Origin: a virus
Taxonomy: Duplodnaviria > Caudoviricetes
Length of the DNA: 24,446 nt
Direction: 5' to 3' (one strand)
Virus record (IMG/VR): IMGVR_UViG_3300005805_000475
Coordinates: 1 to 24,446 of that record
A program made the position numbers and the translations under genes. The notes beneath the pieces were generated by a model. The model saw only the letters and a program-made list of their open reading frames with translations. It searched no databases and was not told where the DNA came from. This document shows, piece after piece, positions 2,258 through 21,809 of the stretch (the stretch's first letter is position 1; each line of letters starts with the position of its first letter).

Positions 2258-3088
2258 ATGGCTTGTACGGGTCCTTTTGTAAATGGTGTTAGTGGAGGCT
2301 CAGTCTGTGGCTGTTCATGCCCAGATTCTAAATGTTGTCCACCACCGTGTTGCACTTCAATTACATTGACTTTTGAATTAGGACCAGCCTACAACGAAGA
2401 AACAAACCCAGAAGGATGTAAATGCGAAGATCCAACCCCATCTCCATCTCCATCTCCAACCCCATCTCCATCTCCATCTGCTCCGGGATATCGAGCAATT
2501 GATTTTGAAAATGCAGATTGGGACACTGCAGAGAAAGAAAATTGGGAAACAGTGAATATAGGAACACATTTAATTCCTTTTCCAAAATTCATGCATAAAA
2601 ACAAACAAAAAGCAAACGATGACAATTTTGTATTTGCTTTAAATGCCAGTTGCTCTCTGCCATGTGAACTAGTAGAGGTAACTTTAGAAACCGATGGTTG
2701 TTGTCTTGAAATAGTTGACGGAACTAATGGGCAAACAAATTTTGGACCAGATGTTGTCATAAGAATGGTGGGTGATGGTTTCTTGTTTCCAACGGCAGCA
2801 GTGGGAACTTGCAAATTTGATCTTGTAGTTAACGGAACAACAATTACTGAAGAAGTAGACAGTATTGAATTACTGGATGGAGAAGAAATTACAGTTGAAA
2901 TAATTCCTACTGGTGACGGTGCCGGTTGTTGTGATCCTTGTTGGGTGGATACGCAATGCACTCCAAAGAACCTACTGTCTTCAAAAATATTTTACAGAGC
3001 TAGGTCCGTAAAACGAGGTTCTAAAGGGTATTTAAATATTACAAAGTTAAAACAAAAAATTGAAAAATTAAAGCGCAGAAAGTCTTGA
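2258..3088 (+). CDS. Cys-rich protein with Pro-Ser/Thr linker and basic C-terminus, possibly virion-associated
   Basis: 276-aa ORF with CGCSCP, CCPPPCC and CCDPC clusters, a PTPSPSPS linker, an acidic beta-rich middle and a K/R-rich tail. Confidence 0.65.
   Translation: MACTGPFVNGVSGGSVCGCSCPDSKCCPPPCCTSITLTFELGPAYNEETNPEGCKCEDPTPSPSPSPTPSPSPSAPGYRAIDFENADWDTAEKENWETVNIGTHLIPFPKFMHKNKQKANDDNFVFALNASCSLPCELVEVTLETDGCCLEIVDGTNGQTNFGPDVVIRMVGDGFLFPTAAVGTCKFDLVVNGTTITEEVDSIELLDGEEITVEIIPTGDGAGCCDPCWVDTQCTPKNLLSSKIFYRARSVKRGSKGYLNITKLKQKIEKLKRRKS
2432..2479 (+). repeat. Perfect 2 x 24-bp tandem repeat built of hexamers
   Basis: (CCAACC CCATCT CCATCT CCATCT) x2, encoding (PTPSPSPS) x2. Confidence 0.95.
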
Positions 3089-5092
3089 TGCTACTTCTTT
3101 AATCTCTTTGATTAAATCTTCTTTCATATTTAAAATTTTCTTCAACTTGTCATGGTCTATCTCGTTTACAGCATCAACATTCTTGAAGCCCAAATCGTAA
3201 AGTTTTGTTGCCCTTACTTTTCCAATGTTTGGCAATCGACACAAATTTATAAGATGTGCAGGAACTCCATAACCAATCCTAGATGCAACTTCTTGAAAAA
3301 AAGCTTCCTGACCCCATTTACCACTCATAGAATCTAGTGCCAATAAAATTTGTTGAACTCTTTCAAAATCAGTTTGCAAGCCTCTTTGATATCCAGCAAG
3401 ACTGGTCACATGCGATCCATTTAACAAGTTGTAATAACAAAAAGCTGCTTTTTTTATACCCTCTGTAAAAAATTTATATTCAGAAAAACAATCTCTTTGT
3501 AGCTTTTTATCAAACAAGCTTAGTTCTTGTTTCTCCGCAGAATTGACAATATTAGCTTTGTTTGAATCTATATTAGCCAAACATAAAGCCACATGTAAAT
3601 CAGATTTTTGTTTATTGTCTTTAAATAAAAAATAAAAATTCTTACTGTAATCAGCAATATCAAAAGGAGAAAAATAAAAAATACTCGCTATTTTCCCTAT
3701 GCTTGAAACTTTTAGCATACCATCATTATCAAATACAATTTTTTTATCTATCATTTCTTTTAAAATTTGATTTACATATGTAGGATTTAAGTGCCTTGAT
3801 TGAAAATAAGCCAAAGATCTTTCAAACCAAGTGTTTATATCTTCGATTTTTTCAATATTCTCATGAAAAATTTCGCTAACCAAATGAAAGGCAAGATTTC
3901 TAGGTTTTTCTAAAAGTTTTGAAATAATTTGTTGAGGTGCGTTTAATCTATCTCTGTGTCTTTTTGCATCAGAGTTTGGCAATAAAATATATGCATCTCC
4001 ACGAGGATCAATGCCCAATCTTCCTGATCTGCCAACCATTTGAGTTACATTATAAGTTTCAACTTCGTCTTTGCCACGATGAACTCCAAGAATTATAACT
4101 CGTCTAGCTGGTGTGTTGACTCCCCAAGCCAAGGTTGGAGTCGCAACAATAATTCGCAGTCCGTCTTTTTTCTTAAATCTTTTTTCTAAATCTATTCTTT
4201 TTGATTTATCTAAATCAGCATTGTGAAATTCGCAATCAATTGAATTGGCTTTAAATGTTTTGGTGATCAATTCACCAGTTCTTTTTGTGTGGGCAAATAC
4301 TAAAAACTTATCATCTGGATAATCATTTACGATGTCTAAAGCTTTCTCTATTTTAGCTTTTTCTTCCATATCGTAACTGTAACAATTGTCATCATCATAA
4401 TTTTCATAATGAATTCCCAAAGGTACTGGTCTATATTCTGAATCTAAAATATAAGTTTTTTTATTGTTAAGTTTAGATAACCACTCTGCTATTTGTTTGA
4501 CATTTGGCATAGTTGCCGATAAAAAAACAACTCTACAATTTGGATTAATTTGCGTAAATTTCATTAATCCAACTTCCAAATGTTCACCTCGTCCCGGCAC
4601 TGTAAGTAAATGAGATTCATCAATAACTAATGTGCCTATATCTTTTAAATACAAACTTTTTTCAGAATTTATATTTCTAGCTCGATGATTCAACATTTCC
4701 GATGTCATAATGATAAGATCAGATTTTTTTAATTCATCTTGTCTCTTGTCTGTGATTCTGTAATCGCCTGTGCAAATAGAAATGTTTGCATCGAAGAAAT
4801 GATAAGATGCATCAGTCCACTGATCTATTTTTTCTTGAGCCAAAGCCTTAAGCGGAGCAAGAAACATACCCTTGCCACCTCTTTTTCTTATTTCATGTGC
4901 CAGAAACATTTCAGCAATCACTGTTTTACCAGCACTCGTTTTTGCAGCCACTAACACATTGGCATCTTCTTCAAATATTTCAAATATTCTACTTTGAACT
5001 GGGTTAAATTTTTCAAATTCCCATTTGGCAAAAGGATATTTTGAACAATCTACTAATTCGAATTGATCTTTTATTTCAACAATCTCTTCCAT
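3068..5092 (-). CDS. Ski2-like SF2 helicase of Hel308/Hjm type with C-terminal helix-hairpin-helix
   Basis: Q motif FNPVQ, AKTSAGKT, APLKALAQEK, DESH, LSATMPN, RPVPL, TPTLAWGVNTPA, QMVGRSGR and HhH LPNIGKVRATKL. Start moved from track 5128 to ATG 5092 (SD AAAGGG). Confidence 0.9.
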   Translation of the reverse strand: MEEIVEIKDQFELVDCSKYPFAKWEFEKFNPVQSRIFEIFEEDANVLVAAKTSAGKTVIAEMFLAHEIRKRGGKGMFLAPLKALAQEKIDQWTDASYHFFDANISICTGDYRITDKRQDELKKSDLIIMTSEMLNHRARNINSEKSLYLKDIGTLVIDESHLLTVPGRGEHLEVGLMKFTQINPNCRVVFLSATMPNVKQIAEWLSKLNNKKTYILDSEYRPVPLGIHYENYDDDNCYSYDMEEKAKIEKALDIVNDYPDDKFLVFAHTKRTGELITKTFKANSIDCEFHNADLDKSKRIDLEKRFKKKDGLRIIVATPTLAWGVNTPARRVIILGVHRGKDEVETYNVTQMVGRSGRLGIDPRGDAYILLPNSDAKRHRDRLNAPQQIISKLLEKPRNLAFHLVSEIFHENIEKIEDINTWFERSLAYFQSRHLNPTYVNQILKEMIDKKIVFDNDGMLKVSSIGKIASIFYFSPFDIADYSKNFYFLFKDNKQKSDLHVALCLANIDSNKANIVNSAEKQELSLFDKKLQRDCFSEYKFFTEGIKKAAFCYYNLLNGSHVTSLAGYQRGLQTDFERVQQILLALDSMSGKWGQEAFFQEVASRIGYGVPAHLINLCRLPNIGKVRATKLYDLGFKNVDAVNEIDHDKLKKILNMKEDLIKEIKEVASRLSAL

Positions 5093-15435: not shown

Positions 15436-16956
15436 TTATTCCTCATCAGCGTCTATAACGCTATTTTTAGTGTGTTCTTTTTTCTTCTTTTTATCAACAG
15501 AGTAGGTATCGAATGCAATTTCTTCGCTCCTACGCATTTGCACCCTAGTCATTCTTTCTTTATATGTTTCAGCACTAATTTCATACATATCTAATGTACC
15601 CATAGAAAAATCAAAAGCTATTTTAAAAGGAAATCTTGATCTTCCATTTCTATGTTTAATCACAAAACCTCTACCGCACTCTGCATCTTTTTCGATTGTT
15701 TGCTGATTAATCGACCAAAAAGCATCAAGTGGCTTAAATTGATCAAATGATGTTCCAATGTTTGATTCATCAATATATTGTGAAATTTCTAATTTGGCAG
15801 CGGTTTGATTAGGCTGAACACATGTAAGAGTACAGTGCTGTTTTTCTACACCAAAACCTCTTAAATCTCTAAGTATTCTATAAGCACTTTCGTATTTTTT
15901 CACAGTGGGATCATCTTTCATTTCTCCAACATAATCAATAATCACAAGATTAGGTTTCCAACCCATAGATTCAAGTCTAGAGCAATATCCTCTAATGCCA
16001 TTAACATCAAGAGAACCACCCGGAAATTGTTTTAATATAAATAAATTTTGATCATCTTTGTCTTTGCCAAACTCTGCAATTGTTTTTTTAACTTGATCTT
16101 TACACTCTCGTAATAAATTAATATCAATTTTTGTAAATTGACTAGTGAATCTTTGTGCTATGCCTACTTCATCCATTTCCAATGTGATATATAAAACTTT
16201 ATGTCCAAGCAAAACATTGGCAACTGCAGCTTTTACCAATGCTAAACTCTTTCCAGTTCCCGGCAAACCTATCCATGCTCCTATTTGACCCGCAAACAAT
16301 CCTCCATTTGTCAAAGCGTCATCAATTGATGGGAAACCACTGGTGAATCTTTCTTTGCCCTCAAATTGATCATCCATTCTTCTAAACATTTCATCTACAT
16401 TTAAAAAATACTCCAAACCCGGTTCGTAATTTGTATCAACATTCATGGACTCTCGCATTTTTTCATATACGAAACTCCATGTCTTTTCATCTTCGGGAGC
16501 TTCTGCCATCTTCTTGGCACATTCTCCAAATGCAACCTTGACTGCCTGAACTCGTGCAAAATATGTAACTCGCTCTAACAAATATTCACGAGTATCAACA
16601 TTAGGAACATAATAATCGTATAGAGCTTCCAATTCAGTCACATAATATAATTGAACTGAACTTTCTTTTTCTTTGAGATGACTTAAAAGTTCTTGTTTCA
16701 TAACAGAAATATGTGGCAAAACTCTTTTTTGTTCAAAATATTTAAAAAGAATATTTACAATAGTTACATGCACTTCATTGCTGAAATAAAATGATTTTAA
16801 TTTATCTAAACTCTGAATAAGCATGGTTTGATCCATAAGAAGCATACCAAGTATGCGTCTTTGAAATGTATCATCCCATGCAAATCTAGTTTTTACTGCG
16901 TCTGGATCAGAATATGAATCTAATTTAGCTTGTTCTTCAGGTGTTAATTCTCTCAT
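15436..16956 (-). CDS. Replicative DnaB-family helicase (T4 gp41-like)
   Basis: FTSGFPSIDD, GLPGTGKS, VLYITLEMD, IIDYVGEM, CVQPN, IKHRNG. AGAGGG SD. Confidence 0.93.
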   Translation of the reverse strand: MRELTPEEQAKLDSYSDPDAVKTRFAWDDTFQRRILGMLLMDQTMLIQSLDKLKSFYFSNEVHVTIVNILFKYFEQKRVLPHISVMKQELLSHLKEKESSVQLYYVTELEALYDYYVPNVDTREYLLERVTYFARVQAVKVAFGECAKKMAEAPEDEKTWSFVYEKMRESMNVDTNYEPGLEYFLNVDEMFRRMDDQFEGKERFTSGFPSIDDALTNGGLFAGQIGAWIGLPGTGKSLALVKAAVANVLLGHKVLYITLEMDEVGIAQRFTSQFTKIDINLLRECKDQVKKTIAEFGKDKDDQNLFILKQFPGGSLDVNGIRGYCSRLESMGWKPNLVIIDYVGEMKDDPTVKKYESAYRILRDLRGFGVEKQHCTLTCVQPNQTAAKLEISQYIDESNIGTSFDQFKPLDAFWSINQQTIEKDAECGRGFVIKHRNGRSRFPFKIAFDFSMGTLDMYEISAETYKERMTRVQMRRSEEIAFDTYSVDKKKKKEHTKNSVIDADEE

Positions 16957-17948: not shown

Positions 17949-18506
17949 CTATTCGCCATTTAAATAATCATATTCTGACAAAGATACCTGCCCCGATCTT
18001 ATAGATTTTTCCCTTGTAATCTTTTTTCCCATACTTTTTTGACCATTCCAAATAATGGCTTTGCAGTATGTTGAAAATTTTGTATCTACTTTTAATTTTG
18101 CGTGTCTGTCAGGTCTTGCCTTTTTAGGAACTATTGATTTAACAATTATGTCCAACATATTTTCTTGCTTATAACCAAACTTTTGTCTGTTTGCTCCGTG
18201 CCTAGTTCTATTTGTCCATAAATCATTAAGTTTATTTATAATTTTTCCTATAAAGAAATCGCAATTAAATTGACCAACAATGGAAAGACATTTTTCAATA
18301 TAAATCTGTCTTTTGTAATAAGAACCAGCACGAATAATAGAAAGTTGTAATTCTTGATTTATATCTTCAAAATCATCAGTGTAGTTGTTTTTCGTGTTCT
18401 TCTTTTCAAGTTGATGAGCAGCGTAATAACACAATTTACCAAAACATTTTGTAAGATGATCATACTCGTCAGTTGTAATGGGAAAAGACTGGCATATGTT
18501 CTTCAT
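17949..18506 (-). CDS. Sigma70 region-2-only sigma factor (functionally T4 gp55-like) with an internal insertion
   Basis: DFEDINQELQLSIIRA resembles region 2.2 (DLIQEG..GL..A) and TKFSTYCKAIIWN resembles region 2.3 (KFSTYA.WWI). No region 4 HTH follows. Confidence 0.65.
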   Translation of the reverse strand: MKNICQSFPITTDEYDHLTKCFGKLCYYAAHQLEKKNTKNNYTDDFEDINQELQLSIIRAGSYYKRQIYIEKCLSIVGQFNCDFFIGKIINKLNDLWTNRTRHGANRQKFGYKQENMLDIIVKSIVPKKARPDRHAKLKVDTKFSTYCKAIIWNGQKSMGKKITREKSIRSGQVSLSEYDYLNGE

Positions 18507-19831
18507 GTTTTCCTACTTGGTAATTTTATAGTTTTCATCTCCGTTAATTTCCTTCCAACACTACATGACACACTCATGTTTAGATTTGGAAACAATTTAC
18601 ATTCAGAGATCAGCGATTTATGAGAATTTAATATAACTTCCTTAAGTTTATCTTTTCTCGAATAAATCATATATCCGTCATGTACATTATATGCTATTTT
18701 TGTCAAATCCTTCAAGGATTCATAAAGATCAACAAGCTTATATAAACAAAATATTGCTGCGGGAGATTGCACAGCAAAATTTCTTGCTCTATAAAATTTG
18801 TCAGGAAAATTTCTTATTTTTCCCAAAAAATCTTCCGCTTTTTTATCAGACTCTGCTTTTTTTTGATGGCTTTCAATCCATGCGTAAGATGTGCAAAATA
18901 TATTTTTAATTCTATCAACAATCGCTTCAGATGTTTTCATGGGCAAACCAATTTTTTCAGAAATACCATAAGCACTCATTCCATAAAACACAGGAAGTAG
19001 AAACTTTTTACATAATGATCTTTTTTCTTCAGTGTCGCAGGGAGTTTTTAAAATTTTCTCATAAGCACTTTTGTAAATGTCTTCACTTTGACAAAGCTCA
19101 TTTATTTCTTTATCTTTTGATAGCCAACCCAACATTTTAACTTCCATGCTTTTATAATCCATATAAACAAACACACTTTCAAAATCCAAAGGCTTTAATG
19201 TTTCTTTTTGTTCAGGAGTGATAACATGAGGCACATATGCTCTTGTAAAAGCCTTATAACACAACATTCTGCCGTTTTCTTGTCCAGTAATTTCATAATG
19301 AGCATGAAGCTTTTCAGTTGTAAGTATACCTACAGTTTCGAGGTCTGGAATTACATTTAGAACCAAAGGCAAATGCACGGTTTTATAAATGTGATTTATC
19401 TTTGACCAATTGCTTGAAAGCATAACTTGCTTCAAACGATTCATAAATGACAAAAAATTTACAGGCTTTTCGTTTTTAGTGTCGTTGTAACTTTCTAATA
19501 TTTTAAGATCAATTATTGTTCCATTTACTTGAATTTTAATTCCATACATACCAAGAAAAAAAGACACAATGGATTTCCAATCCCAAGCCAACAATTTTTT
19601 TCCAACTTCACAACAATTCATTAAGGCTTTGGCGAAAATTCTAGCAGACCAATCATCAGCAATCGGAATTTCATGATTGCCAGAGTTTGAGGACAATAAA
19701 ATTTTCACAGATTTAGCTTTTTCTCTATTTGTAAAATCCAAAACACCATCCACAGAAGCTATAAAAACAGCACCTGTTTGAAAATGATCTAGCAAAAGCT
19801 TAACAATTTGGCTTGGATGCATCAAACTCAT
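18503..19831 (-). CDS. polA: Family A DNA polymerase-like protein, short and apparently thumb-less
   Basis: Motif A MDYKSMEVKML, motif B RSLCKKFLLPVFYG, ARNFAVQSPAA, motif C NVHDG. Degenerate N-terminal exonuclease-like region (AWDWK, IIDLKILE). Confidence 0.88.
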   Translation of the reverse strand: MSLMHPSQIVKLLLDHFQTGAVFIASVDGVLDFTNREKAKSVKILLSSNSGNHEIPIADDWSARIFAKALMNCCEVGKKLLAWDWKSIVSFFLGMYGIKIQVNGTIIDLKILESYNDTKNEKPVNFLSFMNRLKQVMLSSNWSKINHIYKTVHLPLVLNVIPDLETVGILTTEKLHAHYEITGQENGRMLCYKAFTRAYVPHVITPEQKETLKPLDFESVFVYMDYKSMEVKMLGWLSKDKEINELCQSEDIYKSAYEKILKTPCDTEEKRSLCKKFLLPVFYGMSAYGISEKIGLPMKTSEAIVDRIKNIFCTSYAWIESHQKKAESDKKAEDFLGKIRNFPDKFYRARNFAVQSPAAIFCLYKLVDLYESLKDLTKIAYNVHDGYMIYSRKDKLKEVILNSHKSLISECKLFPNLNMSVSCSVGRKLTEMKTIKLPSRKT

Positions 19832-19837
19832 TCCTAA

Positions 19838-19865
19838 AGTCTACCACGACTTACACTTAAAACAA
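19838..19865 (-). promoter_or_regulatory. Putative sigma70-type promoter giving a leaderless polA mRNA
   Basis: TTGTTT-N16-TAGACT with extended TGn. The ATG is 6 nt downstream of the -10. Confidence 0.5.
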
Positions 19866-19918
19866 TACAAAAATTTTTTTTAGTTTATATTTCTACTACT
19901 TTTATATTAAATTGTTTT

Positions 19919-20345
19919 AAACCGAGTTGCCGACTTAGTTAAGCTGCTGTTACTATAAATGAATAATATTATTACTACTCATAATAGAATCGTTTGAACT
20001 ATTTCTGTGTTTAAACATAGCGTAATTCATTTGATCCAACAGTTAACTCACAGTTTGAATTCTTATGACAATCATAAGATTCTACTTACTAAAACATTTG
20101 ATACCAATGTAGCCTTATAACTCACAGATGTTCCCATTTCTTGTCTGCAAAATGAGAGTCGGCATTTTTTGACACATCTGCGGATGACTTGGCATTCGAG
20201 CATAACAATGGCTCTCGTTGCGCCATTCGTGTTTAACACTACAAAGACTTACCTGCGAAGGCTGCTCAAGTTTTTTACAGATGACTAAATGTTGGGGTAT
20301 CTCAACAAAAAATCAAAAGGGAAGAGTAAGCTTCCTTCTTAGTAA
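19919..20345 (+). ncRNA. Putative large structured non-coding RNA (~430 nt), family unrecognised
   Basis: The only long ORF-free gap in the window. More than ten nested stems, G-U wobbles and a GCGA tetraloop favouring the + strand, and a 9-bp long-range pairing (19928-36 with 20156-64). Ends are approximate. Confidence 0.65.
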
Positions 20346-20376
20346 TAAATAAAGTTTCTATGACAAGTTGAAAGTA

Positions 20377-21024
20377 TTATAATTTACAACCATTGATTTT
20401 CCAATACAAATTTTCCTCAAAATCTTTTCCAAGAGGACAACAAAGGTCAATCAACACTTTTTCATACATCGCATTGAATGATAACATTCTTGAATGAAAT
20501 GAATTTTTATGAAAGATTTCCTTCTTAAATGGAGGAATAGGACCAAAAAGTGTATTTATGTGAAAATAAAATTCTGAATAATATTGATTGTATTTTATAG
20601 GAATGATTTTTTTAAAATTTTCTAATTTTCCACATTTCAATAACATGTTTTGAGGCGAATGAGCAAACCAGTCAAATCCCTTCATGCTTGGGCCATACCG
20701 GTTATCAACACCATTATTTATCAATATAAAATCTTCAATATTCAGTAAATCGACTTTATTTTCAAAGTTCGTAGCATAATTGGAATAACACGATATTACC
20801 CAAGATGTTAAAGGTCTATATGGTAAAAAAATTACATAATCTTTAATATTCTCAACCCAATTATCTTGTAAAAGGGTATGATGATGATTAATTTTTTTAA
20901 GAGGCGTAGGTGTGTATTTTATTTTGAAATTATTTATATTGCTTAACAATGTGGCTTTTATAGACTCCGAGGCACATCTAGGTGGCAAAAGAACAATAAA
21001 TTTGTAAAAATGATTTAAAAGCAT
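20377..21024 (-). CDS. Sulfotransferase-like protein (Sulfotransfer_2-type)
   Basis: FIVLLPPRCASESI resembles the 5'-PSB motif (PKxAS), YRPLTSWVISCY the 3'-PB motif (RxP..R..S.Y), and SPQ follows. Confidence 0.55.
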   Translation of the reverse strand: MLLNHFYKFIVLLPPRCASESIKATLLSNINNFKIKYTPTPLKKINHHHTLLQDNWVENIKDYVIFLPYRPLTSWVISCYSNYATNFENKVDLLNIEDFILINNGVDNRYGPSMKGFDWFAHSPQNMLLKCGKLENFKKIIPIKYNQYYSEFYFHINTLFGPIPPFKKEIFHKNSFHSRMLSFNAMYEKVLIDLCCPLGKDFEENLYWKINGCKL

Positions 21025-21113: not shown

Positions 21114-21809
21114 ATGTTCGATTTAAATTTTTTAAACAAGAAACACAATATGAATGAATTGGAAATTAAAGCCTTAAAGGTTTGTAATATTTGGATGGAA
21201 CTTAGCAGGAAAATTTTTCCAAAATACAATCATGGAAAGGTAGCTAAAGGTGATCCAAGAAAAACTTTAATGTTTAAGGTTTGTTACAAATTAGTACGAG
21301 AGACAGAAGCTTTTATTGAGGATGATGATTATAAGCTGTATGTTAGAGCGCAATTGGATATATTAAAACATATTAGTTTAGATAAAGGACATCCGCTTAT
21401 AGATGTAAATTGTCTTATAGGCGATAAAGCATGGAAAAGATGGAAGTTATGGAAGAAAAAATATGACACTACTGTTCAAATTAGAAGTAAAGTTTCCACA
21501 ACAAAGAAAAACACCAGCAAAATAAATGATTTGCTTAAAAAAACTAGAGATTTTTTCAAAATAACTTATGGAGATGTTATAAATTTTGAGAAATTTATAG
21601 AAATAGAAAAAAACGGAGAATTATATCAACATATAAATCTTGGCAGAATATCACCCTACTATTTGGTGTTATCGCCCTTTTTTGAAAAAATTTCAAAAAA
21701 TTTACAGATGAAAAAAATTCATTTTGATTTGAACATTTATAAAAGTGGAATAGATGAATCAGTAATAAAATATTTTGAAAATCTTTTTGATTATGAATTT
21801 AACTTGTAA
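21114..21809 (+). CDS. Hypothetical helical protein, possibly a T4 gp59-like helicase loader
   Basis: Clear ORF. Size and the segments LIGDKAWKRWKLWKKK and LYQHINLGRISPYYLVL loosely echo gp59. Function is speculative. Confidence 0.4.
   Translation: MFDLNFLNKKHNMNELEIKALKVCNIWMELSRKIFPKYNHGKVAKGDPRKTLMFKVCYKLVRETEAFIEDDDYKLYVRAQLDILKHISLDKGHPLIDVNCLIGDKAWKRWKLWKKKYDTTVQIRSKVSTTKKNTSKINDLLKKTRDFFKITYGDVINFEKFIEIEKNGELYQHINLGRISPYYLVLSPFFEKISKNLQMKKIHFDLNIYKSGIDESVIKYFENLFDYEFNL

Follow-up and report, generated by a model that had tools for sequence, protein, structure and literature searches.

The window analyzed here (the whole 24,446-base virus record, which carries a replication block of PolA, DnaB, RecA, a gp32-like SSB and a DEAD helicase) holds a large structured element in the gene-free gap between polA (minus strand, start at 19831) on one side and an ORF ending at 20377 on the other. 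The element is very likely an RNA, and we propose, at a probability of roughly 45%, that this four-pseudoknot RNA, directed toward polA at the likely replication origin of ~0.5-Mb phages, is an initiator or pre-primer transcript. What speaks for a pre-primer is a structure upheld by covariation, present in a single copy, at a fixed place beside polA and with a skew switch there in relatives. Little is known of how replication begins in half-megabase phages, and only a few large structured RNAs have been given a function; here the role of the RNA is testable, as its address is the inferred origin, its neighbor is an unusual polymerase and, in sister lineages, a primase-like gene or RNase H occupies this very position.

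All 11 helices listed in the original prediction are complementary at the coordinates given there, and the structured element that it placed at 19919..20345 (~430 nt) is real, but the true end lies at ~20369, because 20362-20367 pairs with 20140-20145. The one probable pseudoknot that had been proposed (19929-35/20157-63, here called C) holds, and three more exist, namely 19923-26/20214-17 (A), 20100-05/20296-301 (B) and 20140-45/20362-67 (D), giving four in total. By contrast, a proposed closing helix of AAAC/GUUU plus GAGUUG/UAACUC is poorly kept in five other lineages, which pair 1-4 of its 4 and 2-6 of its 6 columns (scored in the variable domain, where MAFFT columns are unreliable), and its CGAG is paired with the loop of a hairpin instead. 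Read 5' to 3' on the minus strand, the RNA runs from the D arm through P9, P8, the four-way junction, the P4/P5 domain and the AU-rich domain to the C and A arms (Table 1); the partner of the P8 loop in pseudoknot B lies 190 nt downstream, the P6a loop (20214-20217) reaches the 3' end (19923-19926) in pseudoknot A, and the last 15 nt of the RNA are occupied by two pseudoknots.

Table 1. Features of the element and its surroundings in the window.
Feature	Position	Strand	Remarks
Structured RNA, ~450 nt	19919..20369	- (inferred)	directed toward polA
Sigma70-like promoter, TTGGAA-17-TATAAT	20376..20404	-	p=0.017 versus shuffles; consensus match
Pseudoknot D, 5'-terminal arm	20362..20367	-	pairs with P5a loop 20140-20145
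Hairpin P9, 5 bp	20320..20335	-	3 pairs changed on both sides
Hairpin P8	20282..20315	-	loop 20296-20301 pairs with 20100-20105 (pseudoknot B)
Four-way junction P6, P7, P6b, P6a	20196..20269	-	most conserved core
P4/P5/P5a domain	20111..20194	-	internal strand 20157-20163 pairs with 19929-19935 (pseudoknot C)
Variable AU-rich helical domain	19937..20099	-	~110 nt longer in L016/L017
3'-terminal arms of pseudoknots C and A	19919..19936	-	
AT-rich spacer	19832..19918	-	87% AT in 60 nt past last arm; candidate unwinding element
Weak candidate polA promoter, TTGTTT-16-TAGACT	19838..19865	-	6 nt before ATG; p=0.27, not significant
Family A DNA polymerase, 442 aa	18503..19831	-	apparently without thumb subdomain
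Conserved 185-aa gene after polA	17949..18506	-	sigma-region-2-like by eye only
DnaB-like helicase	15436..16956	-	
Inserted lineage-specific ORF	20377..21024	-	final codons overlap RNA promoter
Conserved divergent gene	21114..21809	+	tentative resemblance to T4 gp59 helicase loader, unconfirmed

Taken as a single sequence, the element folds only modestly better than its shuffles (z -2.13 on the plus and -2.10 on the minus strand), by the measure which the original prediction had suggested as a check; the covariation that it proposed to look for across homologues upstream of polA is there. In 11 close sequences from about five lineages, compared against a structure that we specified ourselves and with P8, P5a and the variable domain excluded because MAFFT misregisters them, 96.0% of 624 cells are paired versus 88.0% in shuffles, and 21 of 58 pairs have changed on both sides, a count reached by 0 of 500 shuffles (slid controls, 35-46%). 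As covariation in the homologues exceeds that of every shuffle and every slid control, the fold is not chance. Three of the six pairs of pseudoknot B have changed on both sides; A, C and D are nearly invariant among the close sequences, and distant members, read by eye, carry compensatory forms of D with three arm types (CUUGU/ACAAG, CUCGU/ACGAG, AUCGC/GCGAU) and of A (CGAG/CUCG or CAAGC/GCUUG), C not being evident in L243, L247 and L249. The out-of-sample locus L394 retains all four pseudoknots, its 3' end matching the arms predicted from its loops, with ACGAG/CUCG of pseudoknot A replaced by ACAGGA/UCCUGU.

The element, 348-563 nt long in its members, is present at the same position in 18 of 19 polA loci of viral contigs, the 19th having no upstream DNA; the PolAs of the phage lineages that carry it share 37-73% identity. 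When 18 records were searched, it was found once per contig and always at the polA site in 6/6 contigs; G012 has two additional weak off-site matches. A covariance model (R1) built on the 275-nt conserved part finds L240, L243, L247 and L249 (E 2e-21 to 7e-10), each of them in the polA sense, and a second covariance model (R2) finds L394 (E 1e-39), which is in neither model and has two genes between the element and the divergent gene and none between the element and polA. Model R2 with default filters matched one of 16 further loci, and R1 run unfiltered on the gaps of L229, L241, L246, L250-254 and L395 gave only a weak partial match in L246 (E 0.003). Scans with two core patterns returned 19 and 20 stretches, all within the clade save one chance match, whereas pattern matches in metagenomes were genuine in 10 of 18 cases and due to chance in 8; L192 was discarded as a chance match, and a scan by the pseudoknot arms alone gave 120 stretches and no homologue. 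A search with the divergent neighbor retrieved 39 loci.

No tRNA, tmRNA or RNase P hallmarks had been seen originally, and this agrees with ARAGORN, which called no tRNA or tmRNA gene in the window, and with a scan of the window against Rfam 15, which gave no hit at the gathering threshold (best E 6.7); eight related loci, five of them members, likewise gave no Rfam hit at E<=1. Resemblances to tmRNA, RNase P, SRP and group I introns, drawn by eye, were rejected, as the helix order is wrong and neither Rfam nor ARAGORN supports them. Against GenBank phages, blastn returned chance matches of 27-40 nt only. A literature search, with most subscription papers outside its scope, found no description of the RNA; 10.64898/2026.10.21.760802 (supplements apart) and PMC10641170, in the parts covered, contain nothing relevant to it, and in PMC10690425, likewise in part, the candidates are <=151 nt and six motifs of the element are absent from six supplementary files, so that a fragment could be in the other three. 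The element very likely represents a real, uncatalogued RNA class matching no Rfam family: with covariation and one site across distant phages, the original call of a novel large phage noncoding RNA with a pseudoknot is supported, its plus strand excepted.

The functional strand is probably minus (polA sense), and the earlier placement on the plus strand is probably wrong, as the plus strand has an A.C excess, folding favors the polA sense and a sigma70-like promoter lies on the minus strand. Over 15 helices, the plus strand has 49 A.C cells versus 27 G.U cells, with arms chosen by a strand-blind score, helix ends included and some short arms misregistered; with the strand-blind arms, 12/12 sequences are more stable on the minus strand. 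Full-length folding favors the polA sense in 9/10 members by energy and in 7/10 by z (15 shuffles each), as it does in L394, the plus-strand z being better in L240 and L247. One-sided changes that keep a pair number 7 cells in 5 pairs for the minus strand versus 2 cells in 1 pair for the plus strand, and unpaired positions on the minus strand are A-rich (728 A, 530 U, 305 G, 299 C). In the window, 8 nt separate the end of the -10 box of the minus-strand promoter from the first paired arm; sigma70-like promoters matching the consensus reach p<0.05 on this strand in 7/11 members versus 2/10 on the plus strand. Among the 11, the -10 box precedes the first arm by 7-9 nt in 6 members and by 26-30 nt in 3, whereas no good minus-strand promoter is seen in L018 and L149.

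The original argument for the plus strand, from repeated G-U pairs and a GNRA loop, holds insofar as some near-invariant plus-strand G-U pairs (in the AAAGACUU/AAGUUUUU and CUGUGU helices) and GNRA-like loops exist, and the A.C to G.U ratio speaks against it; a blind wobble count gave G.U versus A.C as 6 versus 6, at shuffle level. In five other lineages, 7-8 of the 8 columns of the AAAGACUU/AAGUUUUU helix are paired, with plus-strand G-U, and plus-strand promoter-like sites occur in L011 (p 0.017) and L018 (p 0.003). These features, together with the z values of L240 and L247, are what one would expect if the plus strand were functional or if both strands were made as a sense-antisense pair like RNA I/RNA II, a reading that can be combined with any of the others; we hold it to be somewhat unlikely in view of the A.C excess, the minus promoters, the A-rich unpaired minus positions, the polA-sense folding and the 7 versus 2 one-sided changes.

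The original prediction had drawn no link between the element and a replication origin. Raw and third-position GC skews are confounded by gene strand and were replaced by corrected tests, in which the G+T versus A+C (keto) skew at four-fold sites was regressed on gene orientation and then scanned for a switch. A significant upward switch is present in 10 of 15 contigs and, in 5 of these 10 informative ones, falls within about 2 kb of the polA-upstream site (G006, 0.16 kb; G012, 0.24; G009, 0.30; G011, 0.66; G004, 2.0). The remaining significant switches lie at 3.8 kb (G008), 7.2 kb (G007) and 16 kb (W01, LR756511), or elsewhere, at 55 kb in G005 (site rank 8/115) and 202 kb in G010 (rank 6/255). 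Switches that are not significant lie at 0.6, 1.5 and 2.7 kb in G001, G003 and G002, the window's three closest contigs, where the site is <=10 kb from a contig end, at 22 kb in the AEP-bearing G015, and at 60 kb in G013, with the opposite sign at the site. Drawing one random divergent gene junction per contig gives ~0.5 on-site switches expected versus 5 observed. The permutation takes no account of correlation between neighbors, and the contigs are not independent (G011 is related to G012, and G007 to G008).

In the 546-kb contig G018:C90, whose gap does not belong to this RNA family, the segment that best fits as leading extends from 104.8-107.3 kb to near 334 kb, with the site at 106.3 kb; the raw GC-skew minimum is at 106,027 and the residual cumulative minimum at 96.6 kb, 10 kb off. 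In G006, the T-A skew has opposite signs on the two sides of the site, for genes of either orientation. Because a significant switch on site is present in only two of the six family-bearing contigs, G004 and G006, the origin call depends on synteny throughout the group. Since the site coincides with the gene-strand-corrected skew switch in 5/10 contigs and in the 546-kb relative, it is likely the replication origin. CheckV completeness estimates for relatives (136 kb at 28%), together with contigs 546 and 595 kb long in which this gene pair recurs, indicate that the genomes of these phages are near 0.5 Mb. Two matches are located in bacterial genome bins and were not taken as host evidence.

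An RNA at an origin need not act in initiation, and every step of the following scheme after folding is one that we infer. RNA polymerase would start at the sigma70-like promoter, and the transcript would fold into a compact, end-locked body; sequence past this body would stay hybridized in the AT-rich spacer as an R-loop, a 3'-OH would come from RNase H trimming or from the transcript end, the adjacent low-processivity PolA would extend it, and DnaB would then be loaded before the phage DnaE takes over. As the RNA's last 15 nt sit in two pseudoknots, the primer end would have to lie beyond the folded body, in the spacer. The 60 nt past the last arm are 68-87% AT in 11 members, a weak signal as the window overall is ~70% AT; the spacer is not consistently purine-rich (0.38-0.67), and no conserved G-tract is seen in it. 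AT-rich inverted repeats, which could be a terminator or a protein-binding site, stand 15-50 nt beyond the last arm in L243 (3430-3450), L247, L249, L011 and L018.

Some of what is said here of ColE1 RNA II is general background. In its working, the element would resemble ColE1 RNA II and the T4 R-loop origins while being unrelated to them. Like the RNA II pre-primer, it would be a structured RNA of similar size, made from a promoter at an origin where a family A polymerase is at hand to extend it (PMC7157519, in part); it differs in having no match in sequence or in Rfam, four long-range pseudoknots and a different topology, a PolA that is phage-encoded, adjacent and short, no G-tract seen and a skew that indicates two replichores, and an RNA I-like antisense is suggested, by an opposite-strand promoter, in only 2/10 members. 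T4 origins consist of a promoter and an AT-rich unwinding element, and oriF/oriG share with the present site a promoter followed by an AT-rich stretch, with RNase H, a helicase and possibly a gp59-like loader nearby, in a lytic large phage, but need ~100 bp and no specific RNA sequence, as against a covarying structure of 350-560 nt here (PMC3016281, in part); the polymerases here are PolA and DnaE, not gp43. Mycobacteriophage origins use either RepA or a noncoding RNA, so that one genomic slot holds a Rep protein or an RNA, as in the present group; the non-RepA origins, compared by description, maintain small prophage plasmids beside parABS and have no similar structure described (PMC7157519, in part). 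If true, the pre-primer reading would add giant genomes to the small plasmids and T4 as users of RNA-primed origins, here by way of a highly structured RNA, and would supply an origin marker for this phage group and a new four-pseudoknot fold for structural work.

The neighboring PolA, at 442 residues, matches Klenow-type folds of ~580 residues and aligns to Pol I only from the palm strand onward, with the motif A and C aspartates present. From the pre-thumb helix to the palm strand, the gap is 3-8 residues in the 4 homologues, of 13, that were caught by a pattern; in Pol I the same gap is ~100 residues. The enzyme thus apparently has no thumb subdomain, although the AlphaFold model has pLDDT <50 at residues 166-217 and so does not settle the thumb. 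A separate DnaE is encoded in 11 of 18 records, and in 5 of the 6 that bear the family, and PolA therefore need not be the replicase. In eight contigs (G001, G002, G005, G006, G009, G012, G014 and G015), the DnaE catalytic domain is split into two ORFs kilobases apart. RNase HI was found in 1/15 contigs. DnaG-like primases are present in four relatives, where the RNA consequently does not replace the lagging-strand primase, and none is seen in the six family-bearing contigs, which are only 16-39% complete; the idea that the RNA replaces DnaG was dropped on account of those four.

Such a short thumb raises the possibility, which we judge unlikely, that the RNA is a bound subunit of PolA, forming with it a ribonucleoprotein primase or initiator and gripping DNA or supplying the primer, in the way that MP serves CcPol. 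A compact four-pseudoknot fold with both ends buried would suit a stable particle, the element stays beside polA (the gene insertions in L394 are on the other side), and A-family polymerases with a short thumb serve as primases together with a partner (10.1101/2022.12.02.518924, in part). CcPol-MP and TV-Pol are likewise truncated and encoded near a helicase, but their partner is a small OB-fold protein and no RNA is involved, and priming by the present PolA is putative (10.1101/2022.12.02.518924 and PMC10201439, both in part). Against a bound subunit, the same short PolA occurs in phages that lack the RNA, namely LR756511 and L255, where a protein gene takes its place, and lineages with unrelated gaps, and the thumb is left unsettled by the AlphaFold model.

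The position of the element, on the polA strand and 79-229 nt upstream of polA in 10 members, together with a promoter of its own and the lack of a strong terminator (one weak terminator-like match lies inside, at P9), would also fit a cis-regulatory 5' leader of the replication operon, be it an attenuator, a riboswitch or an autoregulatory operator like the T4 gp32 pseudoknot. No helix sequestering the start site and no riboswitch-type expression platform overlapping a terminator or start site were found in the element, the spacer that follows is AT-rich and unconserved, a candidate polA promoter stands 6-8 nt before the ATG in 5/9 members (significant in 1/9), and other lineages have whole genes at the site, all of which makes a leader quite unlikely.

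With its own promoter, end-locking pseudoknots and typical size and complexity, the RNA might instead be a free-standing ornate RNA of the ROOL, GOLLD or raiA type, unrelated to replication and merely placed at a point of divergent transcription; there is no conserved reading frame in it (longest stop-free stretch 33-100 codons, with variable indels), and no guide-like targets were found elsewhere in three contigs beyond scattered AT-rich 13-mers. ROOL, GOLLD, OLE, raiA and HEARO share its hundreds of nucleotides and many pseudoknots and are partly phage-borne, but they have another gene context and none gave an Rfam hit in the window or the eight related loci. We find this reading quite unlikely, as the site is fixed in 6/6 contigs despite gene insertions on the other side and is the place of the skew switch. 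Lastly, it is very improbable that the fold works as single-stranded DNA at an opened origin, as a primosome assembly or single-strand-origin signal: the position would suit this, covariation is blind to RNA versus DNA and the strand evidence is mixed, but there is a promoter at the 5' edge, the unpaired minus positions are A-rich, and both the wobble-preserving changes and the presence of four pseudoknots would be commoner in RNA than in DNA.

Returning to the pre-primer reading, sister lineages carry other things at the site. In L255/L256 (one protein), a 427-aa ORF (L255:2613-3896, minus strand) stands directly upstream of the short PolA and has an AEP-TOTE match below the cut-off (E 9e-5) and AEP-like neighbors in Atlas; in LR756511, a 387-aa ORF (L257:3841-5004, plus strand) without a Pfam hit has by eye what we take to be polymerase-palm-like motifs. 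RNase HI lies between the gap and polA in L245 and beyond the gap in L248, where polA is outside the locus. In the gaps of non-member lineages, 7 of 11 stretches have z <=-2 on the polA sense (10 shuffles, no intergenic control). One might speculate that a folded RNA marks the origin, partners the thumb-less PolA and replaces a protein initiator or primase of other lineages, several unrelated RNAs having independently taken up this role, but we consider so broad a scheme improbable.

Several further features of these loci were observed. The ORFs of L255 and L257 have a low-complexity or distinctive stretch near the middle or end, which might be an internal origin. A second conserved gap element, apparently unrelated, occupies the same site in L250, L251, L252 and L254 (~3440-3880; z -5.1 on the polA sense in L251), and a third, of ~700 nt with a long self-complementary domain beside polA (z -7.7), is present in L226, L229 and L236 (L229:1580-2290); additional gap types are seen in L241, L245, L246, L248, L253 and L395. 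Around the element, the divergent gene at 21114..21809 scored 0.92 against the T4 gp59 helicase loader, with 131 shared features, and follow-up comparisons gave no support for the likeness; the 185-aa neighbor protein has no match in Pfam, PHROG or PDB. The inserts upstream of the RNA differ by lineage (window 20377-21024, minus strand; L211:903-1541; L206:2111-2791), those of the window and L211 being similar and that of L206 matching Sulfotransfer_2. At window 2258-3088 (plus strand) there is a Cys-rich ORF with a PSPSPT repeat, raised GC and neighbors on the opposite strand. Finally, a GCGC-centered motif is found at one edge of the gap elements of L240, L241, L246, L251, L253, L254 and L229, and inside the L257 ORF.
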